From: a virus
Virus record (IMG/VR): IMGVR_UViG_3300027759_000002
Span: 115,755 to 179,754 of that record
Length of the DNA: 64,000 nucleotides
Strand: one strand, 5' to 3'
Each line of letters opens with the position of its first letter. The first letter of the stretch is position 1. Shown here piece by piece: positions 2,554-32,263 of this stretch. The notes beneath the pieces are model-generated. The model was not told the origin of the DNA. It ran no database searches and saw only the letters and a program-made list of their open reading frames with translations. Both the position numbers and the translations under genes were made by a program.

Positions 2554-2628
2554 GGGCTGATAGCTTAATGGTAAAGCAGTGAACTCATAATTCATTGAGT
2601 CTAGGTTCAATTCCTAGTCAGCCCACCA
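2554..2628 (+). tRNA. tRNA-Ile2(CAT): tRNA with CAT anticodon, probably Ile2 (lysidine type)
   Basis: Cloverleaf GGGCTGA/TCAGCCC-ACCA, loop CTCATAA; resembles the bacterial Ile2 scaffold; Met not excluded. Confidence 0.85.
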
Positions 2629-2641
2629 ATTTTAAAAAAAT

Positions 2642-3157: not shown

Positions 3158-3201
3158 TTCTCCTAAATAACTTGGGGTAATTGTGCCCTTAGGAGACCAG
3201 G

Positions 3202-3708: not shown

Positions 3709-3711
3709 AAT

Positions 3712-4245: not shown

Positions 4246-4258
4246 TTTTAAAAACCGC

Positions 4259-4287
4259 TTGCCAAGACATAAAAGTTCCTATATAAT
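4259..4287 (+). promoter_or_regulatory. Sigma70 promoter for the leader-peptide transcript
   Basis: TTGCCA(4259)-17 nt-TATAAT(4282); predicted +1 is about the A of ATG 4294 (leaderless mRNA). Confidence 0.8.
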
Positions 4288-4293
4288 AACACT

Positions 4294-4404
4294 ATGAAAA
4301 ATTTTAAACATAAACCCTTTACGTTACAGTCCGAGTATCGCACAATTAATTGTGGTGATAGCTCATGGGCGCCGACTGGGTTTTGTGTAAAGAGAGAGAA
4401 CTAA
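4294..4404 (+). CDS. Putative attenuator leader peptide (36 aa, all 20 amino acids)
   Basis: MKNFKHKPFTLQSEYRTINCGDSSWAPTGFCVKREN; its 3' part pairs with the downstream terminator stem. Confidence 0.75.
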   Translation: MKNFKHKPFTLQSEYRTINCGDSSWAPTGFCVKREN

Positions 4405-4434
4405 TACATAAGTTCTAAAAAAGACTTCAAACAC

Positions 4435-4470
4435 AAGACCCTAGACCTAAAAAATCTAGGGTTTTTTGTT
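4435..4470 (+). terminator. Intrinsic terminator (attenuator 3:4 hairpin)
   Basis: AAGACCCTAGA-9 nt-TCTAGGGTTTTTTG. Confidence 0.85.
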
Positions 4471-4523
4471 TGTTGTTTCAATACAACACAGTGGTTGCCA
4501 GGTCATCGAATCTGGTATACAAT
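4471..4523 (+). promoter_or_regulatory. tRNA operon promoter P1 with upstream palindrome
   Basis: TGTTGT-N6-ACAACA (4471-4488); TTGCCA(4495)-17 nt-TACAAT(4518). Confidence 0.75.
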
Positions 4524-4529
4524 ACACAC

Positions 4530-4546
4530 TGTTCTTTAAAAATTTG
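4530..4546 (+). promoter_or_regulatory. rrn-type boxA antitermination element
   Basis: TGTTCTTTAAAAATTTG versus E. coli rrn boxA TGCTCTTTAACAATTT; just after the promoter and repeated at 5055. Confidence 0.7.
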
Positions 4547-4557
4547 TCGTAGTTTAT

Positions 4558-4631
4558 TGGGGTATAGCATAGTGGTAGTGCTGCGGACTTTGAATCCGTA
4601 GGTCCTTGTTCGATTCAAGGTACCCCAGCCA
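4558..4631 (+). tRNA. tRNA-Gln: tRNA-Gln(TTG)
   Basis: Cloverleaf, loop CTTTGAA, encoded CCA. Confidence 0.95.
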
Positions 4632-4701
4632 TATAAAAACACATTAGAGATAAGCAGGAACTGGTTCGAAACGGGTCGCCTCGTTTAGTGTGTTTCTATA
4701 T
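4632..4701 (+). ncRNA. Candidate spacer ncRNA, copy 1
   Basis: ATATAAAAACACA...TGTGTTTCTATAT closing stem shared with 5359-5427. Confidence 0.5.
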
Positions 4702-4793
4702 GGAAGATGATGCAGCGGGGTTGGTCCTGCGACTGGCCTTGAAAACCAGGTTCTCAGAAATGGGATGGGGTTCGACTCCTCCGTCTTCCGCCA
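4702..4793 (+). tRNA. tRNA-Ser: tRNA-Ser(TGA)
   Basis: GGAAGAT/GTCTTCC-GCCA, loop CTTGAAA, long variable arm. Confidence 0.9.
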
Positions 4794-4798
4794 AACAT

Positions 4799-4886
4799 AG
4801 AAGGTTGCCCGAGCGGTTAAGGGAGCAGTTTGCTAAACTGTCGTTGCGAAAGCGGCGCATCGGTTCGAATCCGATACCTTCTGCCA
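4799..4886 (+). tRNA. tRNA-Ser: tRNA-Ser(GCT)
   Basis: AGAAGGT/ACCTTCT-GCCA, loop TTGCTAA, long variable arm. Confidence 0.95.
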
Positions 4887-4892
4887 AAACAT

Positions 4893-4968
4893 GTAGGTGT
4901 GACCCGAAAGGCTAGGGAGCAGATTGCAAATCTGTTACATGCAGGTTCGATTCCTGTCACCTACTCCA
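4893..4968 (+). tRNA. tRNA-Cys: tRNA-Cys(GCA)
   Basis: GTAGGTG/CACCTAC-TCCA (U73), loop TTGCAAA. Confidence 0.95.
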
Positions 4969-4972
4969 AACA

Positions 4973-5025
4973 TGTTGTAGGAATACAACAGTCTGGTTGA
5001 CAATGATTCATGGTTGTGTTATACT
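4973..5025 (+). promoter_or_regulatory. tRNA operon promoter P2 with upstream palindrome
   Basis: TGTTGT-N6-ACAACA (4973-4990); TTGACA(4997)-17 nt-TATACT(5020). Confidence 0.8.
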
Positions 5026-5054
5026 TCATCTATGAATTGAGAAATCAATCAAAC

Positions 5055-5070
5055 GTTCTTTAAAAATTTG
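5055..5070 (+). promoter_or_regulatory. Second rrn-type boxA
   Basis: GTTCTTTAAAAATTTG, identical to 4531-4546. Confidence 0.7.
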
Positions 5071-5081
5071 TTGTAGTTAAT

Positions 5082-5156
5082 GCTCCGTTCGTCTATCGGT
5101 TAGGACGCTGCCCTTTCAAGGCGGAAAGACCAGTTCGATTCTGGTACGGAGTACCA
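5082..5156 (+). tRNA. tRNA-Glu: tRNA-Glu(TTC)
   Basis: Cloverleaf, loop CTTTCAA, CCA. Confidence 0.95.
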
Positions 5157-5280
5157 TTTGTTTTGCTGACGTAAGCGCTTGAGTAAACGTCAACTCTAAC
5201 TAACTATGTGTATAAACGGTAATGCTGCAGCTAAATCCGTTGAGCATAGCAAATAGTGCGTCAGCAAAACAAATGGTAGT
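5157..5280 (+). ncRNA. Candidate structured ncRNA closed by a 22-bp stem
   Basis: 5152-5173 is complementary to 5257-5278; internal hairpins. Confidence 0.6.
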
Positions 5281-5283
5281 TAT

Positions 5284-5358
5284 GGGGGTATAACTTAACG
5301 GCTAAAGTAGTAGGCTTTTAACCTATTAATCAGAGTTCGATTCTCTGTACCCCTACCA
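5284..5358 (+). tRNA. tRNA-Lys: tRNA-Lys(TTT)
   Basis: Cloverleaf, loop CTTTTAA, CCA. Confidence 0.95.
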
Positions 5359-5427
5359 TATAAAAACACACTTCCGACAGCAGGCGGAACTCAGGATAAG
5401 TCCATTCGGGTGAGTGTGTTTCTATAT
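5359..5427 (+). ncRNA. Candidate spacer ncRNA, copy 2
   Basis: Same terminal stem as 4632-4701 with a different interior. Confidence 0.5.
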
Positions 5428-5520
5428 GGAGGCATTGTAGATATGGCGTGTTCTGCAGCGGACTGTAAATCCGTTCCCCCGTGGTAAACAATGTTGGTTC
5501 GACTCCAACTGCCTCCACCA
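5428..5520 (+). tRNA. tRNA-Tyr: tRNA-Tyr(GTA)
   Basis: GGAGGCA/TGCCTCC-ACCA, loop CTGTAAA, long variable arm, enlarged D loop. Confidence 0.9.
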
Positions 5521-5712
5521 AATCCCGTTACTACTTCCGTTAAAGTAGCGTTTGATTAGCGATAGAGATCCGGTGGCAGAAAACCGTTAGCGAGAGAAAT
5601 CTCAGGCTCTGATAGGCAGTTCCCTCTGCACACAGACATTAGAATAAAAGGGATGGACAGAGTAACTTCTCAATTAAGGGCTTGTGTGGAAACAAGTAGC
5701 TTATCCTAATTT
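5521..5712 (+). ncRNA. Candidate ~190-nt pseudoknotted ncRNA
   Basis: No ORF; multiple hairpins; loop TCCCT (5621) can pair with AGGGA (5649). Confidence 0.5.
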
Positions 5713-5787
5713 GGTCTTAAAGTGTTCATGGACGCACATCAGCCTGTCACGCTGAAAGAAGGGGATCGTTACCCCTTAAGACCGCCA
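5713..5787 (+). tRNA. tRNA-Asp: tRNA-Asp(GTC)
   Basis: GGTCTTA/TAAGACC-GCCA, loop CTGTCAC, T loop ATCGTTA. Confidence 0.9.
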
Positions 5788-5812
5788 AATAATTGTTGTG
5801 AAGGAAAAGAAA

Positions 5813-6169
5813 ATGAATATAAACGATATGGTTGGAAAAGTATTCACATCGGTAACACAAGATGGTTATGAGATGGTATTTGCGAATGAAACTGAAAAAT
5901 TCAGATTCTTCCATTATCAAGATTGTTGCGAAACAGTTTACATTGAAAGCATTGTAGGTGAGTTATCGGATTTAGAAGGCGAAACACTTTTGATTGCTGA
6001 AGAAGTATCAGGTGAAATACCAGAACCTAAAGAAGATGAATACATTGAATCTCGCTCATGGACATTTTACAAATTTGCTACACGCAAAGGTTATGTTGAT
6101 GTTCGTTGGTTGGGAGAATCAAACGGTTACTATTCCGAATCAGTAGATTTAGAATACGAGTTAGTATAA
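5813..6169 (+). CDS. Hypothetical acidic phage protein
   Basis: ORF with SD AAGGA; H.QDCCE.V and RWLGESNGYYSE motifs familiar from phage hypotheticals. Confidence 0.75.
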   Translation: MNINDMVGKVFTSVTQDGYEMVFANETEKFRFFHYQDCCETVYIESIVGELSDLEGETLLIAEEVSGEIPEPKEDEYIESRSWTFYKFATRKGYVDVRWLGESNGYYSESVDLEYELV

Positions 6170-6176
6170 AGAATAT

Positions 6177-6251
6177 TCCAGAGTAGCACAGCGGTAGTGC
6201 AGTTGACTGTTAATCAATTGGTCGTAGGTTCGATCCCTGCCTCTGGAGCCA
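6177..6251 (+). tRNA. tRNA-Asn: tRNA-Asn(GTT)
   Basis: Cloverleaf, loop CTGTTAA, GCCA. Confidence 0.95.
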
Positions 6252-6465
6252 ATACGTTCCGCTTGGTTAGCGGATACTGTGACCCGCAGGATAAGAAGTG
6301 AGGTGACTCTCAAGGGTGGTAGTCTTTTTACCGAAAGGCCGCTGGCAATGCGTTAACGATCCTGGTCGGGAAGCGGGTGGAGGTTATGGGTGTATTCCCC
6401 TTGAAAAAGGACATGTTTACAACTATGATATAATTACCGCCGCAGGATGCAGAGCACTTAATTTC
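6252..6465 (+). ncRNA. Candidate ~210-nt GC-rich structured ncRNA
   Basis: CAGGAT/ATCCTG and ACCCGC/GCGGGT long-range stems, further hairpins, no ORF. Confidence 0.55.
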
Positions 6466-6539
6466 GCCCTATTAGTATAATGGCATTACACCTGTTTTGT
6501 AATCAGGTTACGGCAGTTCGATTCTGTCATGGGGCACCA
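6466..6539 (+). tRNA. tRNA-Thr: tRNA-Thr(TGT)
   Basis: Cloverleaf, loop TTTGTAA. Confidence 0.95.
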
Positions 6540-6545
6540 GTTTTT

Positions 6546-6621
6546 CTCTCTGAAGCGTTATCAGGTTGCGTACACGGTTTGGGGCCGTGTGGTCAAGGTT
6601 CGAATCCTTGCAGGGAGACCA
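6546..6621 (+). tRNA. tRNA-Pro: tRNA-Pro(TGG)
   Basis: CTCTCTG/CAGGGAG-ACCA, loop TTTGGGG. Confidence 0.9.
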
Positions 6622-6629
6622 GTTTTTTT

Positions 6630-6704
6630 GGGGGCAGCAGTGGGCTGCGGCGTTCCCTTGCAAGGATCGTGACTAGAAGGATTCGATTTCCTCGGCCTCC
6701 ACCA
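6630..6704 (+). tRNA. tRNA-Ala: tRNA-Ala(TGC), atypical fold
   Basis: G3:U70 acceptor pair, loop CTTGCAA, 4-nt D loop, bulged T stem. Confidence 0.8.
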
Positions 6705-6708
6705 ATTA

Positions 6709-6783
6709 GGTTCAGTAGCATAGTGGCAGTGCAGCATCTTCATACGGTGCGTTGTGTGAGTTCGATTCTCACCTGAACCACCA
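6709..6783 (+). tRNA. tRNA-Met: tRNA-Met(CAT), probably elongator
   Basis: GGTTCAG/CTGAACC-ACCA, loop TTCATAC. Confidence 0.85.
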
Positions 6784-6789
6784 AATTAT

Positions 6790-6864
6790 GGGCGATTAGT
6801 AAAATGAATATTACACAAGGCTACGAACCTTGAAGTGGGAGTTTGATTCTCTCATCGCCCTCCA
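6790..6864 (+). tRNA. tRNA-Arg: tRNA-Arg(ACG)
   Basis: Cloverleaf, loop CTACGAA. Confidence 0.9.
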
Positions 6865-6868
6865 AAAT

Positions 6869-6943
6869 GCCGAGGTAGCTCAGTGGTAGAGCAGCGTCTT
6901 GATAAGGCGTTGGCCAAGAGTTCAATTCTCTTTCTCGGTACCA
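6869..6943 (+). tRNA. tRNA-Ile: tRNA-Ile(GAT)
   Basis: Cloverleaf, loop TTGATAA. Confidence 0.95.
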
Positions 6944-6946
6944 AAT

Positions 6947-7020
6947 TTCTCGCTGGTGTAATGGCAGCATAGCGGTCTCCAAAACCGTTGGTTGGGGTTC
7001 GAGTCCCTAGCGGGATGCCA
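6947..7020 (+). tRNA. tRNA-Trp: tRNA-Trp(CCA)
   Basis: Cloverleaf, loop CTCCAAA, GCCA. Confidence 0.9.
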
Positions 7021-7041
7021 ATTTTAAAAAAGGTGATTAAT

Positions 7042-7527
7042 ATGAAAAATTTCAATATAGAAGAAGTCAGACAATACCTTGCAAATCAAGGTCCTGATAC
7101 CAAGGTTTATCTTGGTGCCGACTCTGAAAGAATCAGGGTAAATGGTGTTTGGTATGCTGACTATGCTCTAGCAGTTGTAGTTCATATTGATGGCCGACAT
7201 GGTTGTAAGATTTTCGGATATGTTCACCGTGAATTGGATTACGACCATAAGAAAAGTAAACCTGCTATGAGGTTGATGACTGAAGTTTATAAAGTTTCAG
7301 AATTGTTCCAATCATTAGCAGAAGTGTTGGAAGATTATCATGTTGAAGTTCATCTTGATTTAAATAAAGATGATATTCATGGTAGTTCATGTGTTGTTCA
7401 GCAAGCGATTGGTTATATCAAAGGTACATGTAATATGACACCAATGGTTAAACCAGATGCACCTGCTGCAAGTTTTTGTGCTGATAGATTGAAAAGAATC
7501 TTGGCAGACCAAGAAGCACTTCAATAA
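7042..7527 (+). CDS. RNase H-like YkuK/DUF458-family protein
   Basis: KVYLGADSE, RLMTEV, VEVHLDLN, SFCAD acidic catalytic-like residues; SD AGGTG. Confidence 0.75.
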   Translation: MKNFNIEEVRQYLANQGPDTKVYLGADSERIRVNGVWYADYALAVVVHIDGRHGCKIFGYVHRELDYDHKKSKPAMRLMTEVYKVSELFQSLAEVLEDYHVEVHLDLNKDDIHGSSCVVQQAIGYIKGTCNMTPMVKPDAPAASFCADRLKRILADQEALQ

Positions 7528-7530
7528 TAT

Positions 7531-7605
7531 GGAGAAATTAGTTTAGTGGTAAAACCACGGGTTGTGATTCCGTTATCACCAGTTCGATCCTGGTATTTCT
7601 CCCCA
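7531..7605 (+). tRNA. tRNA-His: tRNA-His(GTG)
   Basis: 8-bp acceptor with G-1:C73, loop TTGTGAT. Confidence 0.95.
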
Positions 7606-7610
7606 AATAT

Positions 7611-7685
7611 GCCCCGTTAGCTCAGTGGTAGAGCAGTGCTTTTACACGGCGAAGGTCGGCAGTTCGAAACTGTCACGGGGTACCA
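7611..7685 (+). tRNA. tRNA-Val: tRNA-Val(TAC)
   Basis: Cloverleaf, loop TTTACAC. Confidence 0.95.
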
Positions 7686-7689
7686 ACAT

Positions 7690-7765
7690 GCTGCTTTAGC
7701 TGATGTGGTCATAGCGGTGGTCTGAAGAACCATTGAAAGAGGTTCGATTCCTCTAGGCAGCACCA
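7690..7765 (+). tRNA. tRNA-Phe: tRNA-Phe(GAA)
   Basis: Cloverleaf, loop CTGAAGA. Confidence 0.95.
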
Positions 7766-7770
7766 AATAT

Positions 7771-7847
7771 GCCCAAGTGACGGAATAGGTATACGTACTT
7801 GATTCAAAATCAAGGTTATGTGGGCTCGAATCCCACCTTGGGTACCA
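7771..7847 (+). tRNA. tRNA-Leu: tRNA-Leu(CAA) with short variable loop
   Basis: Loop TTCAAAA; Leu-type D arm; variable region only about 5 nt. Confidence 0.9.
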
Positions 7848-7848
7848 T

Positions 7849-7922
7849 GCTCTTATAGGTAAATGGCATACCACATCCATGGTAAGGATGTATCCTAAGT
7901 TCGATTCTTAGTAGGAGCACCA
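7849..7922 (+). tRNA. tRNA-Thr: tRNA-Thr(GGT)
   Basis: ACATCC/GGATGT stem, loop ATGGTAA. Confidence 0.85.
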
Positions 7923-8119
7923 ACTTGTTTTAATGTTGTTAAGATAAATTCTTTTTCTTGTGTGATATATAATTCATCATCTTCAAAAGTTTTTATCTTA
8001 GTATCATATGATGGAACAAATTCAGAATCAACACAGTAGTAACCATTAGGTTCATATGTTTGTTGTGCATACAATCCGTAAAACATTTCTACTGTAGGTC
8101 TTTTTGAAGTTGGTATCAT
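7895..8119 (-). CDS. Hypothetical 74-aa protein antisense within the tRNA array
   Basis: ORF MIPTSKRPTVEMF...; late-promoter-like AATAAATA at 8125-8132 on the - strand. Confidence 0.55.
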   Translation of the reverse strand: MIPTSKRPTVEMFYGLYAQQTYEPNGYYCVDSEFVPSYDTKIKTFEDDELYITQEKEFILTTLKQVGAPTKNRT

Positions 8120-8132
8120 ATGAGTATTTATT

Positions 8133-8209
8133 GCCCCGGTGACGGAATTGGTATACGTGTTGGTCTTAGAAGCCAAATTTTGAGAGTTCGAGTCTCTCCT
8201 GGGGCACCA
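8133..8209 (+). tRNA. tRNA-Leu: tRNA-Leu(TAG) with short variable loop
   Basis: Loop CTTAGAA; variable region ATTTT. Confidence 0.9.
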
Positions 8210-8214
8210 AATTT

Positions 8215-8289
8215 CTGGCGTTAGTATAATGGATAATACAGTAGGCTTCTACCCTTCTAATGGGAGTTCGATTCTCTCACGCCGGACCA
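8215..8289 (+). tRNA. tRNA-Arg: tRNA-Arg(TCT)
   Basis: Cloverleaf, loop CTTCTAC. Confidence 0.9.
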
Positions 8290-8306
8290 TTTTTTAGGAG
8301 TTTATT

Positions 8307-8885
8307 ATGCCAGCAGTATTTTTAGTAAGTGACACACACTTTGGTCACGCTGGTGTGTGTAGATTTCTTCGTGATGACGGAACAAAACTTCGGCCATGGG
8401 ATAATCCCGATGAAATGGATGAAGAAATGATTAAGCGTTGGAACGAAACAGTCAGACCAAACGATAAAGTTTACCATCTTGGTGATGTTGTTATTAATCG
8501 TAAAGCAATGAATACTCTATATAGACTTAACGGTGATAAGGTTCTTATTCGTGGTAACCATGATATCTTCCGTGATGAGGAATACAGACAACACTTTCGT
8601 GAACTACGTGCTTATCATGTAATGAATGGAATGATCCTGTCACATATTCCAATTCATACGGAAAGTCTTGGTCGTTTCGGTGTAAACATCCATGGCCATT
8701 TACATTCCAATCGTGTTCAGATTCGTGGGTTCAATGGTAAACCAATGGGTATTGATAACAGATACCATTGTGTTTGTGTTGAACAAACAGATTTTAGACC
8801 GATTCTTTTTGAAGATGTTATCAAACGAATTAAAGAAGAAGGTGGTGAGGTCGGTTTCAAAAGTGGAAACGACCGTGCTATGTGA
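8307..8885 (+). CDS. Calcineurin-like metallophosphoesterase
   Basis: SDTHFGH, HLGDV, GNHD, SH.P, NIHGHLH. Confidence 0.9.
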   Translation: MPAVFLVSDTHFGHAGVCRFLRDDGTKLRPWDNPDEMDEEMIKRWNETVRPNDKVYHLGDVVINRKAMNTLYRLNGDKVLIRGNHDIFRDEEYRQHFRELRAYHVMNGMILSHIPIHTESLGRFGVNIHGHLHSNRVQIRGFNGKPMGIDNRYHCVCVEQTDFRPILFEDVIKRIKEEGGEVGFKSGNDRAM

Positions 8886-8886
8886 T

Positions 8887-8969
8887 GCGAGTATGGGGGA
8901 ATTGGTAGACCCATCAGACTTAAAATCTGCCGCCTCGGCGTACCGGTTCGACTCCGGTTACTCGTACCA
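8887..8969 (+). tRNA. tRNA-Leu: tRNA-Leu(TAA)
   Basis: Loop CTTAAAA, normal long variable arm. Confidence 0.95.
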
Positions 8970-8979
8970 AAAATAATGC

Positions 8980-9008
8980 TTGACTTCTTAATAAGAAGCC
9001 TATATAAT
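8980..9008 (+). promoter_or_regulatory. Sigma70 promoter for the Gly tRNAs and groES
   Basis: TTGACT-17 nt-TATAAT; spacer region holds the inverted repeat CTTCTTA-A-TAAGAAG. Confidence 0.75.
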
Positions 9009-9019
9009 ACACACATGAT

Positions 9020-9094
9020 GCGGGTATGGTGCTAGTGGTAACACAAGACCTTGCCAAGGTTTAGTTGTGAGTTCGATTCTCACTACCCGCTCCA
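9020..9094 (+). tRNA. tRNA-Gly: tRNA-Gly(GCC)
   Basis: GCGGGTA/TACCCGC-TCCA, loop TTGCCAA. Confidence 0.95.
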
Positions 9095-9116
9095 AGTTAA
9101 CTACAACAGATTTTAT

Positions 9117-9190
9117 GCGGGATTAGTTTAGTGGTAAAACAGTAGATTTCCAATCTCCGGTTGAGAGTTCGATTCTCTCATCCCGCTCCA
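9117..9190 (+). tRNA. tRNA-Gly: tRNA-Gly(TCC)
   Basis: GCGGGAT/ATCCCGC-TCCA, loop TTTCCAA. Confidence 0.95.
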
Positions 9191-9196
9191 TTTAAT

Positions 9197-9263
9197 GCGG
9201 TTTGTAATAGTACGATACAAGGTACCCCCTTGTGTTAACTGAGCAAAGCAGTAGACCGCTCCA
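9197..9263 (+). ncRNA. Non-canonical tRNA-Gly-like RNA (67 nt)
   Basis: GCGGTTT/AGACCGC-TCCA acceptor; three arms; no TTCG in the T loop and no GG in the D loop. Confidence 0.65.
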
Positions 9264-9276
9264 TTTTGAGGACACT

Positions 9277-9522
9277 ATGAATATTAAACCCTTGCATGAT
9301 AAAGTATTGATTGAACGTATTGAGAATGTCAAAGAGACCGCTTCAGGCATCATCCTAAAACATTCCGAAGATCCAGATAAAGCAAGAGTACTTGCAGTTG
9401 GTCCGGATGTTACAGAAGTCCAGGTCGGTGATGTGGTTCAACCAGACTGGGGTAAGGCCGCAGCAGTGCAAGATTATTTCGTGGTGAAGATTGAAGACAT
9501 AGCTTACATCTACGGAGAGTAA
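9277..9522 (+). CDS. groES: Co-chaperonin GroES
   Basis: IKPLHDKVLI, TASGIIL, VLAVGP, VQVGDVV. Confidence 0.9.
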   Translation: MNIKPLHDKVLIERIENVKETASGIILKHSEDPDKARVLAVGPDVTEVQVGDVVQPDWGKAAAVQDYFVVKIEDIAYIYGE

Positions 9523-9524
9523 AC

Positions 9525-9752
9525 ATGTCTGATGGTGGTAAAGGTTCTAGTCCAAGGCCGTTTAGTGTTTCACAGAAAACATTTGGTAATAACTACGACA
9601 ATATTTTTAGAAAAAAATCACCAAAAGAAATACAAGAAGACAAATACGAACAAGAAGAATTTGATAGAATTTTAGAAGAAAATCGTATGCGCCAAAAGGC
9701 TTTAGATGCCATGGTGGCAGAAAATCAAAGATTAGGTTTATACGACAACTAA
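9525..9752 (+). CDS. Hypothetical protein
   Basis: MSDGGKGSSPRPFSV N-terminus; SD GGAG. Confidence 0.7.
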   Translation: MSDGGKGSSPRPFSVSQKTFGNNYDNIFRKKSPKEIQEDKYEQEEFDRILEENRMRQKALDAMVAENQRLGLYDN

Positions 9753-9755
9753 TAT

Positions 9756-9828
9756 AGCGGGTTGGTGAAATGGTATCACAGTGGGCTCATAATCCTCAGT
9801 TCCGGTTCGACTCCGTGACCCGCAACCA
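9756..9828 (+). tRNA. tRNA-fMet: Initiator tRNA-fMet(CAT)
   Basis: 1:72 mismatch (A.A), GGG in the anticodon stem, loop CTCATAA. Confidence 0.85.
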
Positions 9829-20320: not shown

Positions 20321-21043
20321 ATGAAACCGTTAGTGACTGTGATTACGCCTACCACAGGTGCACCGTGTGTACGTCAAGCGTTAGACTCGGTTAAAAACCA
20401 AACCTATGATAACATACAACACTTAGTTGTTGTTGATGGCCAACCAAAAGGTCGTGTGATAGCCAAAGAGTATCCACATATTGACCTAATCGACCTCCCA
20501 TACCCAACAGGAAAAGACCAATACAACGGACATAGAATATATGGTGCAATGACCTATATTGCAAACGGTGAGTTCCTATGTTTCTTAGATGAAGATAATT
20601 GGTACGAACCAAATCATATTGAAACCTTGGTTGATGTTATATCAAAGGGAAACAAATGGGCATACTCACTACGTAAAATCGTCAGCCAAGAAGGCGAATA
20701 TATATGTAACGATGATTGTGAATCACTAGGTAAATGGACCTCCGTGATTAATGATAAATTCATTGATGTAAATTGTTTTATGATACCTAAGGCCGCAGCA
20801 TTAGGTTTTTCACCTTACTGGTACCGCAGAGCAAGACATCCACAAGAACAGCCGGAAGTTGATAGAATATTGTCACCGTTTATGATGCAAAATTTACCAG
20901 AATTTGACACGAATGGCCAATATACAATAAACTATAGAGTTGCAAGCAGAGGAGATTCTGTTCAGGCGGAATTCTTTTTGAAAGGAAATGAGATGATGAG
21001 TAAACAATATAATGGAGATTTACCATGGACAAAAAAGACCTGA
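20321..21043 (+). CDS. Glycosyltransferase family 2
   Basis: VTVITPT, ALDSVKNQTY, VVVDG, CFLDEDN. Confidence 0.9.
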   Translation: MKPLVTVITPTTGAPCVRQALDSVKNQTYDNIQHLVVVDGQPKGRVIAKEYPHIDLIDLPYPTGKDQYNGHRIYGAMTYIANGEFLCFLDEDNWYEPNHIETLVDVISKGNKWAYSLRKIVSQEGEYICNDDCESLGKWTSVINDKFIDVNCFMIPKAAALGFSPYWYRRARHPQEQPEVDRILSPFMMQNLPEFDTNGQYTINYRVASRGDSVQAEFFLKGNEMMSKQYNGDLPWTKKT

Positions 21044-23953: not shown

Positions 23954-23994
23954 TTGACAGATTTGTGAATCTGTGGTATAATCCATTATAAATA
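23954..23994 (+). promoter_or_regulatory. Tandem sigma70 and T4 late promoter
   Basis: TTGACA(23954)-17 nt-TATAAT(23977); TATAAATA 23987-23994; palindrome ACAGATT-TGTG-AATCTGT across the spacer. Confidence 0.8.
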
Positions 23995-24038: not shown

Positions 24039-25241
24039 ATGTTATCATTCAAAACTTTTTTAACCGAGCAAGAGGATCCTGAAGAAGGCGCCAGCCGTCA
24101 GATTAAACATTTGACGCATGTGGAAGACCGTCCTCTACAAAATGGTGAAAAAGGTGCGGCACATGCCATCAAATCATTGTCAGCTGCAGCAGAACACATT
24201 AAGGCTGGTAATAAATCATCCGAACTAACCACAAAATATGATGGTTCACCAGCACTTGTTTATGGTCATCATCCAAAGACTGGTAAATTCTTTGTTGCAT
24301 CAAAGTCCGCTTTCAATAAGACACCAAAGATTAACTACACACCAAAAGATGTAGATATGAATCATGGCCACGCACCTGGTCTGGCCGCAAAGTTAAAAGA
24401 TGCACTAACGCATTTACCTAAGATTGCACCTAAGAGTGGTGTGTATCAAGGTGATATGATGTTTGGTACAGACAAAGAAGATAAGAAAACTGAAAAGGGT
24501 GGTGGCACATCGTTTCATCCTAATCCTTCTGGCCTGACATATACTGCACACGGAACACACGAAGGCGGAGTTAAGAAGGCAAAAATTGGTGTTGTAACAC
24601 ACTTATCATATCAAGGTAAAGATGCTGCAAGTCTAAATGCATCACATGAAGTAGACCACGAAAACTTCAATAAACACTCTGATGTATTCTCTGTTGATCC
24701 AAGAATGGACACATCAAAGGTGCATTTCAGTCCAGAAGAACAAAAGAAATTTACTAAACACATTACTGCAGCTCAAGCAGTACATGATACACATGGCGGT
24801 GACATGTATGCTGGTACTAGTGAACACCATGGTGTTGGTGGTTCATTAGAAACTTATATTAACCACACTGTGCGTACAGGTGAAGAATCTAACCATAAAA
24901 ACTTTAAGTCTTGGTTAGAAACAAACAAAAATAAAGCAATTGACAAACTTAAAGTCGAAAAGAACAAGAAGGTCAAACAATCAGCTTTAAAAGATGAATT
25001 GGGTAAAGTTGAACGTAATAAAAAACACTACAATAATCTTTTCAAAATGCATGGTGAGTTGCAGAAGGCTAAAGATACACTTATTGGTGTTATGAATCAA
25101 CACCAAGAGTTTCAACACACACACGGCGGAGAATCTGCGAATCCTGAGGGATATGTTTTTCATCACGGTAAAGAATCGGATAAATTAGTTAATCGTGCGG
25201 AATTCTCTCGTAGAAATTTTGCTGGAATAAGAAACATATGA
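24039..25241 (+). CDS. ATP-dependent ligase/nucleotidyltransferase-like protein
   Basis: TTKYDGS (motif I), VYQGD (III), EGYVF (IV), KLVNR (V). Confidence 0.6.
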   Translation: MLSFKTFLTEQEDPEEGASRQIKHLTHVEDRPLQNGEKGAAHAIKSLSAAAEHIKAGNKSSELTTKYDGSPALVYGHHPKTGKFFVASKSAFNKTPKINYTPKDVDMNHGHAPGLAAKLKDALTHLPKIAPKSGVYQGDMMFGTDKEDKKTEKGGGTSFHPNPSGLTYTAHGTHEGGVKKAKIGVVTHLSYQGKDAASLNASHEVDHENFNKHSDVFSVDPRMDTSKVHFSPEEQKKFTKHITAAQAVHDTHGGDMYAGTSEHHGVGGSLETYINHTVRTGEESNHKNFKSWLETNKNKAIDKLKVEKNKKVKQSALKDELGKVERNKKHYNNLFKMHGELQKAKDTLIGVMNQHQEFQHTHGGESANPEGYVFHHGKESDKLVNRAEFSRRNFAGIRNI

Positions 25242-26992
25242 AAAAGTTTTTAGAAAAACTACACGAAGATGCTCAAACTCACACACCAGTTGTGATGGCA
25301 TTTGGTCGCATGAATCCACCAACCATTGGCCACGCCAAAGTGATTGATAGAGTGAAACAACTTGCAAAAGACTACAAGGCACCACACCACATTATTGTGT
25401 CACATTCTATGGACACAAAGAAGAATCCATTAGACCTTGCGAGTAAAATCAAACACGCAAAGAGATTTTTCCCTGACACAAACATTACCGGTTCAAGTAA
25501 AGAGAAACCAACATTTTTACAACATGCAGCTGCACTACATCAAGCAGGCCATGACCACTTGATAATGGTTGCAGGCTCAGACCGTATTCCAGAATACGAA
25601 CAAAAATTGAATCAGTATAATGGAGAAGGTCCAGGAAAGTTATTCAATTTCAAAAAGATAGAAGTTAAATCTGCTGGTCAACGTGACCCCGATGCAGAAG
25701 GTGCAGAAGGTATGTCTGCTTCCAAGATGCGTGACCATGCAAAGAGTGGTGATTTCAATTCGTTCAGACAAGGTGTTCCTGCACATGTTCCAGACAATCA
25801 TGCTAGAGCATTGTTTCGTGATGTTCGTAAAGGTATGGGATTGAATGAAGAATTCAATCGTGGACTATTTAAAGCAATCTTTGTGACTGGTGGACCAGGT
25901 TCAGGTAAAGACATTATCATACGTGAAGCAATTGCTGAGAGTAAATCAGTAGAATTGAATTCAGTACAAGCATTTGACTTATTGATGGACAAACAAAAAC
26001 TGTCCGAAAAAACAACCGACTATCGTAGAGAAGCTATTCGTAATCGTGGTCCACTAATTATTAATGGACCTGCTGATGACCATACTAGAATAATTACCAT
26101 TAGAGAAGAACTAGAAGAATTTGGTTATGAAACTGTTATGGTATTTGTTGATACAACCAATGAAGCCAGTAAAGAACGTAATGAGAAGTTGACCAAGTCA
26201 ATTTCAGAATCAGTTAGATATGATAAGTGGCAATTAGCACAAACTTCAAAAGAAGCATATCGTCAGAATTTTTCCAATTTTATAGATTTCAATAATAGTT
26301 CAACCTTCGAAGAAATTCAAGAAGACATTACTGACACTTACGGAAAAATAAATAGGTTCATTGAGGACAAAAATTACAATGAAATTGCGTTCTCTTGGTT
26401 GGAAAGTCGTGGTAAAATTAGTATCACATCATTATTTAAGGAAAATGAAAATGTTAAGAAAAATTCTAGATTTTTTGAAAGTTACAAAACCAAACGCACC
26501 AGTGGAAGTCCAACTCTCAACACCGGTACCGGTCCAAGAGCCGAAGGTCCAGGAAGTGAACTCCCAGATAATCGTGCCAGCGACTCCAATGCCGACAACA
26601 TCAAGTGGGACGGAAACAAAAAGCGAGGAAGTTACACCTTCAAAACCTACAGTGAAGAAAGCCCCAGCCTCAAAGTCAGTCCAATCCCCAAAGAAGACAA
26701 CTTCTCCAAGGACAAGGAAAAAGTAAAACGTAATCGTTTCAGAGATTCACCAACTGTTAATCAACGTATGAGAAACATAACAACAGTTGGTCCAGAATTT
26801 GATACACGCCAACAGGGTACAGTATACCCTATGTCTGGTCTAGGCGATGTAACATACAGAGAATCGTTTAATGATCCTTCCGATTCTGAAATGGGTGTGG
26901 TTGGTGTTTTAGGTGGTGCAACAAATAAAGAACCAATGGAAAATCCAAGAGATAAATTTGGTTCAAGTTCAATAAAGAAGAAAAAGAAATGA
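25238..26992 (+). CDS. Cytidylyltransferase-like (HxGH) domain fused to a P-loop kinase-like domain
   Basis: FGRMNPPTIGH, MSASKMR; then KAIFVTGGPGSGKD. Confidence 0.8.
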   Translation: MKKFLEKLHEDAQTHTPVVMAFGRMNPPTIGHAKVIDRVKQLAKDYKAPHHIIVSHSMDTKKNPLDLASKIKHAKRFFPDTNITGSSKEKPTFLQHAAALHQAGHDHLIMVAGSDRIPEYEQKLNQYNGEGPGKLFNFKKIEVKSAGQRDPDAEGAEGMSASKMRDHAKSGDFNSFRQGVPAHVPDNHARALFRDVRKGMGLNEEFNRGLFKAIFVTGGPGSGKDIIIREAIAESKSVELNSVQAFDLLMDKQKLSEKTTDYRREAIRNRGPLIINGPADDHTRIITIREELEEFGYETVMVFVDTTNEASKERNEKLTKSISESVRYDKWQLAQTSKEAYRQNFSNFIDFNNSSTFEEIQEDITDTYGKINRFIEDKNYNEIAFSWLESRGKISITSLFKENENVKKNSRFFESYKTKRTSGSPTLNTGTGPRAEGPGSELPDNRASDSNADNIKWDGNKKRGSYTFKTYSEESPSLKVSPIPKEDNFSKDKEKVKRNRFRDSPTVNQRMRNITTVGPEFDTRQQGTVYPMSGLGDVTYRESFNDPSDSEMGVVGVLGGATNKEPMENPRDKFGSSSIKKKKK

Positions 26993-27201
26993 AAAAATTC
27001 ACAGAGTTTGTGAGAGAATCTACACCAGAAACATCACACCATGATGCTCAAGAAATCAAACGTCAAAAGACACACTTGATGGACAAAGCAAAAGAGTATG
27101 GTGACCAAGCACAAAAAGAAAAACATTTCGGCCACGGTGGAGCAGCAGAAGCTAAAGGTGAGACCATGGTTGCAGCTGCAAAAAATATTAAAGGAGATTA
27201 A
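26989..27201 (+). CDS. Hypothetical, probable head internal protein
   Basis: N-terminus MKKFTEFVRE resembles the T4 capsid-targeting sequence. Confidence 0.65.
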   Translation: MKKFTEFVRESTPETSHHDAQEIKRQKTHLMDKAKEYGDQAQKEKHFGHGGAAEAKGETMVAAAKNIKGD

Positions 27202-27202
27202 C

Positions 27203-27682
27203 ATGATAAACTTAAAAAAGAACGATGCACTTGCTGATGCGGTAAAAGAAATTTTACAACAAGAGGCACTAAAAGGCAATCAACATTTAATTGATAAAAA
27301 TAAGAACAATGAAGTTGATGCACACGATTTCAAAATTCTTCGTGGCGAAAAGAAAACCGTCAAAGAAGAAGAAACCGTTGAAGAAGGTCTTAAAGATATT
27401 GCCAAGAAAGCTTTCAAAGCTTTGACTGGTGGTTCAGATGAAGACCAACGTAAAAATCTACAAAAGAAAATGGGCGTTCCACAAACTGGTAAAAAACCAG
27501 TAAAAGAAGAAGTTCAAGGTAAAACTTTGAAACAATTCAAAGAAGGTTGGGATGAAATGATGGCTGACGTTAAGAAACGTGGCGAACCACAACCAAACGG
27601 TGGATCAGGTAAAAAACAAGGTTCTGCATATGGTGGTTCTAAACAAAAAGACAAGCCAGAACAGGACACAGAAAAAAAGTAA
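27203..27682 (+). CDS. Hypothetical Lys/Glu-rich protein with a probable -1 frameshift extension to 27828
   Basis: SD AAGGAG; ends A-AAA-AAG-TAA; the -1 frame is open for 49 more codons. Confidence 0.75.
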   Translation: MINLKKNDALADAVKEILQQEALKGNQHLIDKNKNNEVDAHDFKILRGEKKTVKEEETVEEGLKDIAKKAFKALTGGSDEDQRKNLQKKMGVPQTGKKPVKEEVQGKTLKQFKEGWDEMMADVKKRGEPQPNGGSGKKQGSAYGGSKQKDKPEQDTEKK

Positions 27683-27837
27683 CTGAGGCAAAGGGACCAA
27701 CCAGTCAGGAAGACGGACCTTTTGTCTCTAGTATTAATGATACACACGATTTAAAACCACTGAACCATGCAAGGTACTTGGCCAAAAAATCTTTAAATAG
27801 AGTTCAAAAAGAAATGATGAACAAATAAGGCACAATA

Positions 27838-29286
27838 ATGAGCAAAGCACAAACATTAAAATCTATAGTTAAAAGGGGGGGTGCAGAAAAGCCTTCTTTC
27901 GGAACTAATCCTTGGGATCCATGGTCCGCAAAAGCTAATATTGCGGAAGATGCTGCTTTGGATCAATATTTGACTTCTAGAGGTATCAATCCAAAACATG
28001 TTTCTAAAGACCAAAAGGTTGCACATTCCAAGATGGGACAATTCATCAAATGGAAAAGAGACCATATGTCAGAAGCAGTTGACAGAAAAGATACTATTAC
28101 TTTTGACATTCCTTTATTGATTCGTGTTTTGGAATTTACTAGAGAAGATTTGAAGACTGATATCAACTTACACAAGATGGTTGAGAGACTATTGAACATT
28201 CGTGGTAAAGGCACATTGACCATGAATGAATATGGTAAAATTGTCAAAGAAGAATATGCAGAAGAAGAAGTGGAACAGATTGTTGAAATAACAACTACTG
28301 GTTATCACAAAGCTGCAATTAAGAGTAGACAAGATGCTGCTGTTAAAGTCATGTCCAGTATGGGTAAAGACAAAACAGCAAAAACAAAACTTGATGCTCG
28401 TAATCGTGGATTAAAACGACTTGGTGATAGAACATCAGCCGAAATGAAGAAGGCCAATTCTGGTCCACAAAAACCAGTACACCATCCAGCCAGCAGTATG
28501 AGTTCACCACAAGCATACTATGCATCTAAGAAACCAGGTGAATACACTGGTGATTCTGTTCAATATTCAGCTGATACTAATGTCATTTCTGAAATCAGTA
28601 GTGCAACTTTGGATAGTTACAAAGAAAAGGCTAAGAAGTCTGCTGACGAACTATCATCAAAAGGTGAATATAGAAAATCTACAAATCGCTGGTCTAATGT
28701 TATGAAAGCCACCGGTAAACAGATTGACAAGACAACTGCTGATATTAAGAAGTCTTTGAATAAAGAAGAAACTGAGCAAGTGCAAGAAGTTGCACCTCCA
28801 GGTTTCGAAGGTACTGTCAAAGCAATGAAAAAGTACAAAGGTATTGATAATCCTTGGGCTCTTGCATGGTCCATGAAGAACAAAGGTTATAAGTCACATA
28901 AGAAGGCTGACGGTACACCTAAGAATGAAAACTATCAGGATCCGCAAGCCGCTTCATCAATGCCTGGTGATTGTGCAAATAGTCCCGATGATGTTGAACA
29001 ACCAAAGAATAAAAAGTTGATTCAAATGTCTAAGTCTGCTCGAATCATTAAAAACCTTTACAAAAAGAAAGGTATGAAAGAGGAAACTTACGACCATGAA
29101 AAGGAAGACAAATCTGTTGCAACATATGGTAAAAAACCAAAGATGCAACAAGTTAGTGCTGATTTGGAAGAACCGCAAGCCGCAGCCGTATTAACAGGCG
29201 GTACTACCTTGACTGGTGAAAAAAGAGATACCATCGAAATCGACCCTATGATGAAGATGCGTAAACCAATTTCTGGAAAAAGATAA
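27838..29286 (+). CDS. Hypothetical modular late protein (probable head internal protein)
   Basis: Modules separated by acidic V/I-x-E linkers; EISSATLDSYKEKA. Confidence 0.7.
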   Translation: MSKAQTLKSIVKRGGAEKPSFGTNPWDPWSAKANIAEDAALDQYLTSRGINPKHVSKDQKVAHSKMGQFIKWKRDHMSEAVDRKDTITFDIPLLIRVLEFTREDLKTDINLHKMVERLLNIRGKGTLTMNEYGKIVKEEYAEEEVEQIVEITTTGYHKAAIKSRQDAAVKVMSSMGKDKTAKTKLDARNRGLKRLGDRTSAEMKKANSGPQKPVHHPASSMSSPQAYYASKKPGEYTGDSVQYSADTNVISEISSATLDSYKEKAKKSADELSSKGEYRKSTNRWSNVMKATGKQIDKTTADIKKSLNKEETEQVQEVAPPGFEGTVKAMKKYKGIDNPWALAWSMKNKGYKSHKKADGTPKNENYQDPQAASSMPGDCANSPDDVEQPKNKKLIQMSKSARIIKNLYKKKGMKEETYDHEKEDKSVATYGKKPKMQQVSADLEEPQAAAVLTGGTTLTGEKRDTIEIDPMMKMRKPISGKR

Positions 29287-29322
29287 ATAGTAAATATAAC
29301 CCACGGTTAAAAGGAGAATAAC

Positions 29323-30189
29323 ATGTCATCTTGGGGAAATAACGATAACGCAGCTAATGCACCATATTGGGCTGTTGAGACAGTACAAACAACAAATGCG
29401 CCAGTTGCATCCGCACCAACAGCAGCAAACGTTGCACTGTTGTATGGTAATACACAATTCCAGGCATATACACAAGGTATGACTGTTGGATTATTCATGG
29501 TAGATGCTACAGAAACCACTGCTGGTGGTGATAATGTAGTGGATATCTCATTGTCGAATCAAGGATCCGGATATGTTGCAGTGCCTGGTATTACATTATC
29601 AGGCGGCGGCGGTACATCTGCTGCAGCAACTGCTTCTATTGCTGGGGGTAAAATTTCCAATATCACTGTAACAAACGTTGGTTCTGGATATACATCCGAT
29701 CCTGTAGTTACAATTGGCCAACCTAATTTAGTTATTCCAATAGCTCAAGTTATTGTTGCAAACAACGTAATAATGTATACTGCACACGGCCAAGCAAATA
29801 GTGCTGCTCTAGTTTATAACTGGAATGGTTCCGCAAATATTGGTGGTATTACAAATGCAAACACATATTATGTTGTGCCTGTTGATGCCAATCGTTTCTC
29901 ATTAGCAGCAACTGCCGCTGATGCAGCTAACAACGTTGTTATTGACCTTACAACACAAGGTGCTGCAACTCAATACTTTGATATTGTTGGTGGTGTACGT
30001 GCTACTGCTGTTGCAAGCCGTGGTTTAAGTCAAGGTGCAAGCGGTGCAGAACATGCAACACACATTGGTTGGAATATAAAAACAGTTGGTTCAGGTGGCC
30101 GTGCTGGTCGTGTTCAATACGAAACGTTAGTTGCCATCTCTGAAGTTAAAGGTGATGGTTCAGACGATATTACTTTACCTGACGCTTAA
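29323..30189 (+). CDS. Putative virion structural protein
   Basis: GATAAATA late promoter at 29282; Gly/Ala/Thr-rich GSGY repeats. Confidence 0.65.
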   Translation: MSSWGNNDNAANAPYWAVETVQTTNAPVASAPTAANVALLYGNTQFQAYTQGMTVGLFMVDATETTAGGDNVVDISLSNQGSGYVAVPGITLSGGGGTSAAATASIAGGKISNITVTNVGSGYTSDPVVTIGQPNLVIPIAQVIVANNVIMYTAHGQANSAALVYNWNGSANIGGITNANTYYVVPVDANRFSLAATAADAANNVVIDLTTQGAATQYFDIVGGVRATAVASRGLSQGASGAEHATHIGWNIKTVGSGGRAGRVQYETLVAISEVKGDGSDDITLPDA

Positions 30190-30190
30190 C

Positions 30191-30213
30191 AAAAGGGGCT
30201 TCGGCCCCCATTT
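30191..30213 (+). terminator. Intrinsic terminator
   Basis: GGGGC-TTCG-GCCCC followed by ATTT. Confidence 0.7.
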
Positions 30214-30216
30214 AAT

Positions 30217-30603
30217 ATGTTCGATGAATTGAATGAAGATAATTTTATGATGTATGCTGCAAAATGCTATACATCACCACATTGCATTATGTCGGAATTT
30301 GAGGGAGATATTAAAAGAACAAAATACCTGAAAAGGTTATTTCGTAGATATAAGGTCACAAAATCCCTCAAAGAACGATTAATTATAAACCATATCATTT
30401 TATTGAATAATGTTTTTGGTCCAGAAGCAACGGCAAGAATATTGTTCTATAAGACTGATGAACGTGATTATGATATTCTAAAAACATTTTTAGATTACCT
30501 TGACATTATGCCTGACTTTGTTTATGGAATTAATGGAAAAACTATATCATCATCCGATTTACCACTAGATATGAATGTCGCAGAGATATTAAGAAACATA
30601 TGA
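30217..30603 (+). CDS. Hypothetical T4-like protein
   Basis: ELNEDNF.MYA.K.Y..P, LIINHII.L.NVFG motifs. Confidence 0.75.
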   Translation: MFDELNEDNFMMYAAKCYTSPHCIMSEFEGDIKRTKYLKRLFRRYKVTKSLKERLIINHIILLNNVFGPEATARILFYKTDERDYDILKTFLDYLDIMPDFVYGINGKTISSSDLPLDMNVAEILRNI

Positions 30604-31253
30604 AAAAATTCAACGAATACATCAACGAAGTTAAAGAACCAACTGGTGACCTAAAGAAGGCTTGTTGGACTGGATACACTGCTGTCGGAACAAAAAAGAA
30701 AAACGGTAGAACCGTTCCTAATTGTGTTCCAGAAGAAGTTGAAATAGACGAAAACCATATTGCCATCGCCATGGGTAAAGAGATGGATGATGAAGGCAGT
30801 ATGATTATGAATCAACTGGATCAAATAGAACGTTCCATTAACATGATGCGTGAAGTTGTCAAGGATCCAAATATGCAGGTACCTGCTTGGGTGCAATCTA
30901 AAGTAACATTAGCCGCAGACTATATTGAAACTGCTGCTGGTTATATGTCTAGTAAAAATGAAGAAGTTGACTTAGAAGAAACTGCTGCATGGCAACGCAA
31001 AGAAGGCAAAAGTGAATCTGGTGGTTTGAATCAAAAGGGTGTTGATTCTTATCGTAGAGAAAATCCTGGTTCAAAACTAAAGACAGCTGTCACAACCAAA
31101 CCATCAAAATTAAAAGCAGGTTCAGCTGCAGCAAATCGCCGTAAGTCATTCTGTGCTAGAATGTCTGGTATGAAGAAAAGATTAACATCAGCAAAAACTG
31201 CTAATGATCCGGATTCTCGTATTAATAAATCTTTACGTAAGTGGAATTGCTGA
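30600..31253 (+). CDS. Hypothetical late protein
   Basis: MKKFNEYINE; AAWQRKEGK..SGGLN.KG and RRKSFCARM modules. Confidence 0.75.
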   Translation: MKKFNEYINEVKEPTGDLKKACWTGYTAVGTKKKNGRTVPNCVPEEVEIDENHIAIAMGKEMDDEGSMIMNQLDQIERSINMMREVVKDPNMQVPAWVQSKVTLAADYIETAAGYMSSKNEEVDLEETAAWQRKEGKSESGGLNQKGVDSYRRENPGSKLKTAVTTKPSKLKAGSAAANRRKSFCARMSGMKKRLTSAKTANDPDSRINKSLRKWNC

Positions 31254-31498
31254 TGAAAACATTTCAAGAATATATCACAGAAAAGGGTAGATGTTGGACT
31301 GGTTACAAACCTGTTCCAGGTAAAAAAGCATACTCCGATAACAGCTGTGTAAAAGAAGATGGTATGGCAGCTGCACCAGCAAACAGTGTCAGCGGTGGAA
31401 ACATTGCTGGTTCAGGTGGCGCTGGTGGAGAACCAGGTGTTTCTAAGAAAAGAAATCCAGTAATGTCATTTACTAAACGCAGTCAACCGAAGATGTAA
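31253..31498 (+). CDS. Hypothetical late protein
   Basis: MKTFQEYITE; CWTGY module shared with the upstream gene. Confidence 0.7.
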   Translation: MKTFQEYITEKGRCWTGYKPVPGKKAYSDNSCVKEDGMAAAPANSVSGGNIAGSGGAGGEPGVSKKRNPVMSFTKRSQPKM

Positions 31499-31499
31499 T

Positions 31500-31955
31500 A
31501 TGTGGATACTGCAATGGTTACCTAATTGGATTTTCTACGCCGTCTTATTAGCCGGCGTTTTTGGTGTGGCCGCATCATATTTCATTAGATTCCTTAGTTT
31601 CATTCCTTTTCTTTACATTTACAAAACACCTATACAACTTGGTTCAATTGCATCGATTGCCATTGGAACTTTTATGTCAGGTGCGATATATGATAATGAC
31701 GTATGGGAAACAAGAGTAAAAGAAATGGAAGCCAAAGTTGCTGTTGCTGAAACACAATCAAAAGAAGAAAATATTAAGATTGTTGAAAGAGTGGTAAACA
31801 AGGTACAGATAGTCAGAACCAGAGGTGAAGACATTGTTAAATATGTAGATAGAGAAGTGGTCAAGTATGACACAAAATTTGCACCAGGTGGTATCTGTGA
31901 AATTCCAAAAGAGTTTATCAAGGCACATAATGATGCAGTTGAGGCACCTAAATGA
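31500..31955 (+). CDS. Putative i-spanin (Rz-like)
   Basis: N-terminal TM segments, periplasmic coiled coil, C-terminal Cys; upstream of the lipoprotein and endolysin. Confidence 0.65.
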   Translation: MWILQWLPNWIFYAVLLAGVFGVAASYFIRFLSFIPFLYIYKTPIQLGSIASIAIGTFMSGAIYDNDVWETRVKEMEAKVAVAETQSKEENIKIVERVVNKVQIVRTRGEDIVKYVDREVVKYDTKFAPGGICEIPKEFIKAHNDAVEAPK

Positions 31956-32263
31956 AAACCTTCAAACAGTTCATTTCACATAAATCACCAGAAGAAAAAA
32001 AGAAGCCACTTGACTATGCTGCTATTCGTGCAGCATCAGCACAATCAACTCCAACACAGAAGACTGGTAGTACTAAATTTGTTATGCACCGAGAAGGTTA
32101 CGGTCCTTGGGGTAAAATATCACAAGTTAATTTAGATAAAATTGCAAAAGCCAAAAAACGTGAAGAAAAAGAAAAAGGTTTAATGAGAAAACCCGGATCA
32201 ACGGCATCAAAAGATACAATTAATTATGTTACTAAAGTAAATAAACTTTCTGAAGAAAAATGA
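31952..32263 (+). CDS. Hypothetical basic protein
   Basis: MKTFKQFISH; lies between the spanin genes. Confidence 0.6.
   Translation: MKTFKQFISHKSPEEKKKPLDYAAIRAASAQSTPTQKTGSTKFVMHREGYGPWGKISQVNLDKIAKAKKREEKEKGLMRKPGSTASKDTINYVTKVNKLSEEK

Follow-up and report, generated by a model that had tools for sequence, protein, structure and literature searches.

One gene of an uncultured freshwater phage placed among the T4-like phages very likely makes two proteins, of 159 and 208 amino acids, through a programmed -1 ribosomal frameshift of the dnaX kind. A first-pass annotation of this DNA had proposed that such a shift extends the protein. The proposal is supported by a census of the A7 run at the site, by selection on the -1 open reading frame (ORF), by constraint on the arms of a downstream hairpin, and by orthologs in which both parts of the protein lie in a single frame.

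Phage genome and gene cluster

The window analyzed here is a stretch of 64,000 nucleotides and forms the final 64 kb of a virus record. That record is complete at 179,754 bp, carries direct terminal repeats and has a G+C content of 37%. The DNA polymerase of the phage is ~50% identical to the polymerases of T4-like cyanophages. The genome encodes a gp21-type prohead protease (PF03420, 111 bits), and the window contains 26 tRNA genes in an array (2554-9828) that covers most amino acids. Judged by its DNA polymerase, its gp21-type protease and its tRNA genes, the phage belongs among the T4-like phages. Close relatives of the region are all uncultured contigs, mostly from lake metagenomes, and DNA and protein searches of the GenBank phages returned no match to the region, the ORF or the -1 peptide. 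The neighboring genes led no further than to "hypothetical protein" entries from cultured phages, namely cyanophages, pelagiphages and phages of Methylophilales.

The gene cluster is preceded by a sigma-70 promoter of perfect consensus (TTGACA, a 17-nt spacer and TATAAT, with an extended TG) at 23954-23982. Before the same cluster, TATAAATA, a motif of the T4 late-promoter type, lies at 23987, 5 nt past the sigma-70 promoter. With both motifs within 23954-23994, just ahead of the cluster that includes the frameshift gene, the late expression assumed in the first-pass annotation is only one possibility. The next gene after the frameshift gene (27838-29286, 482 aa) is its syntenic 3' neighbor in the frameshift-type, fused and split relatives alike.

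Anatomy of the recoding site

All features of the site are on the plus strand. The true start of the ORF is ATG 27203, and a Shine-Dalgarno sequence, AAGGAG, can be read directly 6 nt before it (27191-27196). The zero-frame ORF (27203-27682) encodes a charged, mosaic protein of 159 aa whose N-terminus, MINLKKND..., is shared by the orthologs. At its 3' end, the ORF reads ACA GAA AAA AAG TAA, and the slippery heptamer A_AAA_AAG (27673-27679) stands in the X_XXY_YYZ phase of the zero frame. An SD-like AGGA (27663-27666) is located 6 nt 5' of the heptamer. The annotated end of the ORF, the in-phase heptamer and the AGGA were all found as first described, base for base.

The zero-frame stop codon TAA (27680-27682) adjoins the heptamer and provides the first 3 nt of a 5-nt spacer (27680-27684). 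After the spacer comes a putative stimulatory hairpin (27685-27728), composed of two arms (27685-27698 and 27715-27728) and a loop (27699-27714), with a stem of 11-14 bp. The stem had been predicted from 27685 to 27728, starting 5 nt after the heptamer, and folding places it there at -20.4 kcal/mol (z = -2.4; 3 of 200 shuffles were equally stable). From its opening at 27643 up to its conserved part, the -1 frame is free of ATG, GTG and TTG. Following a slip, it would extend the protein by 49 codons plus a stop (27679-27828), encoding a conserved C-terminal module that has no start codon of its own. Its stop codon, at 27826-27828, falls 9 nt short of the next gene at 27838, in agreement with the annotated startless frame of 49 codons that reaches that gene.

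As background, in-phase A_AAA_AAR heptamers were scanned for in the 180-kb genome, and 29 were found. Among these, the present site has the strongest downstream fold. It also has the longest -1 ORF, barring one that is itself the next gene, in an overlap. No frameshift element in Rfam matched the site. The in-phase A_AAA_AAG at 21031 was considered as a second frameshift with a long -1 ORF and was rejected as an ordinary gene overlap, because the second gene there starts at an ATG of its own (21025) behind an SD sequence. That heptamer comes one codon before ORF 20321-21043 terminates, the gene that follows is read in the -1 frame, and 21025-21043 is a 19-nt overlap between two glycosyltransferase-like genes.

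Proposed mechanism of the shift

Lys-tRNAs would occupy both the P site and the A site when ribosomes translating the 159-aa ORF arrive at A_AAA_AAG. The hairpin that follows after 5 nt would resist unwinding, and the upstream AGG(A) may pair with 16S rRNA. A fraction of the ribosomes would then re-pair one base back and go on with GUA (Val). Alternatively, the slip may occur with Lys-tRNA on AAG in the P site and the slowly decoded UAA in the A site. The tandem two-tRNA slip and the P-site slip are both expected to give the same junction, ...EKK-VTE.... The predicted short product of 159 aa would end in ...EKK, and the predicted long product of 208 aa would continue as ...EKK-VTE... with the 49-residue module. 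The Lys tRNA in the phage-encoded set is tRNA-Lys(UUU) only, with no tRNA-Lys(CUU). A single tRNA-Lys(UUU) makes A_AAA_AAG especially shift-prone in E. coli (PMC5009743).

Conservation of the run and of the -1 frame

The length of the run was determined in related sequences with a pattern permitting A6, A7 or A8 before the conserved downstream bases. Every related contig that matched, 50 of them viral and 49 from metagenomes, has exactly A7 (99 of 99, from many samples), which excludes a homopolymer sequencing error. All 26 loci found with the ORF and all 50 loci found with the -1 peptide carry GAAAAAAAGTAA followed by a startless -1 ORF of 49-54 codons. The conservation of the heptamer and the -1 ORF among homologs, which the first-pass annotation had named as a check to be made, is seen in all of these loci.

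The -1 ORF itself behaves as a coding sequence. Compared with the relative L020, it differs by 15 synonymous changes and 1 non-synonymous change (pS 0.52, pN 0.008), and other pairs are alike. By these counts, the -1 ORF is coding and under strong purifying selection. A different reading of the locus is that the two frames are an artefact or a product of decay, in which a homopolymer error has broken a fused gene or a recent frameshift has left a dead C-terminal remnant. One additional A (A8) would give an in-frame fusion, and fused orthologs exist. Against this reading, the contigs with A7 are independent and come from many samples, the -1 ORF has remained under purifying selection despite many synonymous changes, and read-through of the site is seen in not one of the top 120 protein homologs, 80 of which terminate there. 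We regard an artefact or decay as the least probable of the explanations considered, with next to no chance of being correct.

The -1 ORF could also be a small gene of its own, translated by reinitiation or from a non-canonical start, with the hairpin acting as a terminator, an RNase site or a recombination junction. One relative, L032, does have the module as a separate gene, and the conserved 60-nt block could mark a site of recombination. However, ATG, GTG and TTG are absent from the -1 frame between the upstream stop and the conserved residues in 50 of 50 loci, and the residues directly after the junction are conserved at the amino-acid level. Upstream of the junction, the -1 frame is open for only 3 codons in some loci. 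Moreover, a U tract is missing from the hairpin, which was not flagged as terminator-like. Independent translation is therefore highly improbable, and recoding of a single gene is the reading that we retain.

The SD-like element is also conserved in part. Its AGG is invariant in 19 of 19 unique upstream variants of the A7 type and is built by CAG (21% of Gln codons) or AAG (28% of Lys codons), both of which are rare in the genome. The gap between AGGA and the heptamer is 6 nt in the window but widens to 9 nt in the majority of relatives, some of which no longer have the fourth base. A role of the upstream AGGA in shifting is suggestive only, as judged from this pattern.

Constraint on the downstream hairpin

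In related A7-type sequences, the hairpin folds at -18 to -28 kcal/mol. In a synonymous-site test of 28 unique sequences, 2 of 8 third-codon positions were variable in the hairpin arms vs 29 of 33 in the rest of the -1 ORF (Fisher p = 0.001), and the first 17 codons of the -1 ORF are under added constraint. The stem, whose conservation had been left to be checked, is accordingly both stable in relatives and depleted of synonymous change in its arms. Two changes were found in the arms, one from A-U to G-U and the other from an A.A mismatch to A-U, and pairing is kept or improved in each. No compensatory double substitutions were found among the A7-type sequences compared, where the block is nearly invariant; the constraint is therefore not proof by covariation, the block being too invariant for compensatory pairs. 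Part of this invariance could come from the recent recombinational spread of a cassette among mosaic genes. The hairpin was also considered as an intrinsic terminator, and this was rejected on the grounds given above. Relatives with the module in frame are without a strong hairpin at the corresponding position. Taken as comparisons of sequence, these data show the site, the module and the hairpin to be under selection.

Fused, split and A10 relatives

Distant syntenic orthologs of 367-586 aa have the same N-terminus, a shuffled mosaic middle and the same C-terminal module in frame. Their synteny includes an NTase-kinase gene and small leader-bearing genes upstream and a homolog of gene 27838 downstream. 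In L036, the in-frame junction ...DKK-VNE... corresponds to the junction predicted for the shift, and its DNA resembles the frameshift type plus one extra G. In L032, the module has become a 61-aa gene of its own (L032:3864-4049), which overlaps the end of the upstream gene by ATGA. The stand-alone module of L032 starts with a leader that resembles a capsid-targeting sequence (CTS) and ends in V-V-E, similar to the leaders of the neighboring genes. Because orthologs carry the module in frame, it belongs to this protein. By this comparison, the two frames form one protein, and the gene is a recoded gene whatever the mechanism of recoding may be. In-frame fusions among homologs had been listed in advance as a finding that would refute a frameshift. 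The distant homologs are indeed fusions, but the claim is not refuted by them. They support it, since in relatives at close and intermediate distance the shift site is maintained by selection.

Modules that are only 41-51% identical to that of the window were found in another seven viral contigs, which represent three sequence contexts (L219-221, L226-228 and L234). The geometry is kept in all three contexts: the module is in the -1 frame, there is no start, and a TAA adjoins the run. Here A10 takes the place of A7, and a weak fold follows (-9 to -12 kcal/mol). Exactly A10 was found in 7 of 7 contigs of one type, and the A10 sequences inspected are without the upstream AGG motif. Relatives of the gene with A10-G-TAA are L219-L221, L226-L228, L234 and L243-L249, and the junction is near 2485-2502 in L219-L234.

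The A7 lineage, by its sequence features, appears to carry the full dnaX-like signal set, and recoding in the A10 lineage is probably due to the run itself, with slippage perhaps by RNA polymerase. The A10 relatives are without a strong hairpin, so in some lineages the A-run alone is probably enough for slippage, possibly by RNA polymerase. It follows that a transcriptional contribution is possible at the A7 site of the window too.

Ribosomal or transcriptional slippage

Transcriptional slippage would yield an identical fused protein if RNA polymerase added one A at A7, leaving some mRNAs with A8. The three diverged lineages with A10 at the junction and no strong hairpin speak for such a process. 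The usual substrate of polymerase slippage is a run of 9 or more A (PMC5009743), and the window falls short of this, its A7 being below the length of the bacterial sites known to slip efficiently. Runs of this size are also tolerated elsewhere, with 44 A7/T7 and 11 A8/T8 runs in the genome. The terminal G, the phase of the heptamer and the hairpin 5 nt downstream are instead features of a ribosomal shift. Furthermore, selection on the hairpin arms cannot act through transcription. The RNA 3' of the run is unmade while the polymerase is on the run, and selection on the hairpin therefore argues for a translational event. Overall, transcriptional slippage is an unlikely source of the long product at this site, and we infer that the slip is ribosomal rather than transcriptional.

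The C-terminal module and its possible part in head maturation

Neither Pfam nor PHROGs contains a family for the ORF, the module or nine orthologs, and the ESM Atlas returned only viral hypotheticals with a low-confidence model. A literature search on this protein family, or on -1 frameshifting in T4-like internal proteins, found nothing specific. AlphaFold, with an alignment of 12 modules, predicts disorder in the first half of the module and a single confident helix over residues 25-47. No further copies of the module were found in the genome, where it occurs once.

(V/I/L)-x-E plus a small residue stands before the module in most of its versions, and the frameshift junction makes V-T-E|A. 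The T4 prohead protease gp21 cuts its substrates after L/I-x-E, and the bond cleaved in gp22 joins Glu to Ala (PMC9026906). The sequence before the module, together with the leaders on the L032 module and on the neighboring genes, is the basis for the idea of a packaged polyprotein. The first-pass annotation took the protein to be head-associated, which its context suggests as a possibility. We offer it tentatively, as a possibility with the odds against it: the gene may encode a prohead-targeted polyprotein of small internal peptides, in which the junction ...KK-V-T-E|A... would create a prohead-protease site that releases the last peptide. That peptide is predicted to be a 23-residue basic helix, which would be cut off after the V-x-E of the junction. 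With the cleavage site made by the junction, how much of the peptide each capsid receives would depend on the rate of slipping. The family would then have four interchangeable solutions to one dosing problem: an in-frame fusion, a ribosomal shift at A7 plus a hairpin, slippage on A10, and a separate gene with a capsid-targeting leader. Alternatively, the module may anchor a prohead-targeted polyprotein rather than being delivered by it. The start of the ORF, MINLKKND..., is not CTS-like, and differs from the leaders of the neighboring genes and of the stand-alone module of L032.

At least six ORFs at 24039-32263 have a T4 capsid-targeting-like leader of the form M-K-(K/T)-F-x-E-(F/Y)-x-x-E. 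The starts of the leader-bearing ORFs are 24039, 25238, 26989, 30600, 31253 (listed from GTG 31241) and 31952. A ligase-like DUF6267 protein and a cytidylyltransferase/P-loop fusion are among them. Their shared leader suggests a bank of packaged proteins at 24039-32263.

Short modules are shuffled between neighboring genes at 27203-31498, in the proteins P0053, P0055, P0056 and P0058. A module in gene 27838 (~residues 340-365) and the C-terminal module of ORF 31241-31498 recur as C-termini in homologs of the frameshift gene. The borders of the modules are usually acidic linkers of the E-E-V-x-E type.

Relation to known recoding systems

The site resembles that of E. coli dnaX in its heptamer, A_AAA_AAG, in the 3' stem-loop after a short spacer, and possibly in the upstream SD-like element. 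The dnaX shift depends on tRNA-Lys(UUU) reading both Lys codons (PMC5009743). The dnaX architecture ascribed to the site by the first-pass annotation holds for the heptamer and the 3' stem-loop, and fits less well for the AGGA of the window, which is 6 nt from the heptamer vs about 10 in dnaX. Across the window and its relatives, this distance is 6-9 nt. The outcome is also different. In dnaX, the shifted ribosome soon stops and makes the shorter product, whereas in the window the zero frame stops and the shift gives the longer product. The dnaX gene is unrelated, and it has no sequence or Rfam relationship to the window site.

In T7 gene 10A/10B and the major head protein of Lactobacillus phage A2, a minority -1 shift produces a C-terminal extension (PMC5009743; work listed in PMC10885494). 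As proposed for the window, the shift is near the end of the gene and results in two isoforms. The slippery site of T7 is of the G_GUU_UUC type, unlike the A_AAA_AAG found here. The T7 and A2 proteins are proven capsid components, whereas the window protein has no known function and comes from a T4-like myovirus lineage. The G/GT tail assembly chaperone of lambda also uses a conserved -1 shift to make a short and an extended protein, at a fixed ratio in lambda, but differs from the window site in gene family and genomic context. Work cited in PMC10885494 reports T4-like phages to be without a frameshift for the tail chaperone.

The A10 relatives look like known transcriptional slippage sites, such as those of Thermus thermophilus dnaX and IS elements. 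The window differs from such sites by having only A7 plus stimulators of the ribosomal type. A comparison with the T4 internal, Alt and core proteins, which are processed by gp21, is suggested by the gp21-type protease gene of the phage, by the CTS-like leaders nearby, and by the (V/I/L)-x-E that precedes nearly all versions of the module and resembles the L/I-x-E site of gp21 (PMC9026906). However, the T4 internal proteins have no homology to the window protein, and the N-terminus of the window ORF is not of the CTS kind. The signal works like that of dnaX and the outcome is like that of T7 gene 10 and the A2 head protein, and the gene is a member of none of those gene families. The mechanism of frameshifting proposed here is a classical one.

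Significance

Annotated phage frameshifts are almost only in tail chaperone genes. The gene described here is a well-supported and population-wide case of a -1 frameshift of the bacterial type within a lineage of T4-like phages, and gene callers truncate its protein in every contig. With fused, A7 plus hairpin, A10 and split junctions in one gene family, it provides a natural comparison set. This set could show how recoding signals come about once an indel has occurred, and how run length and stimulators are balanced against each other. If the module is a capsid-internal peptide, recoding would be linked to T4-type head maturation.
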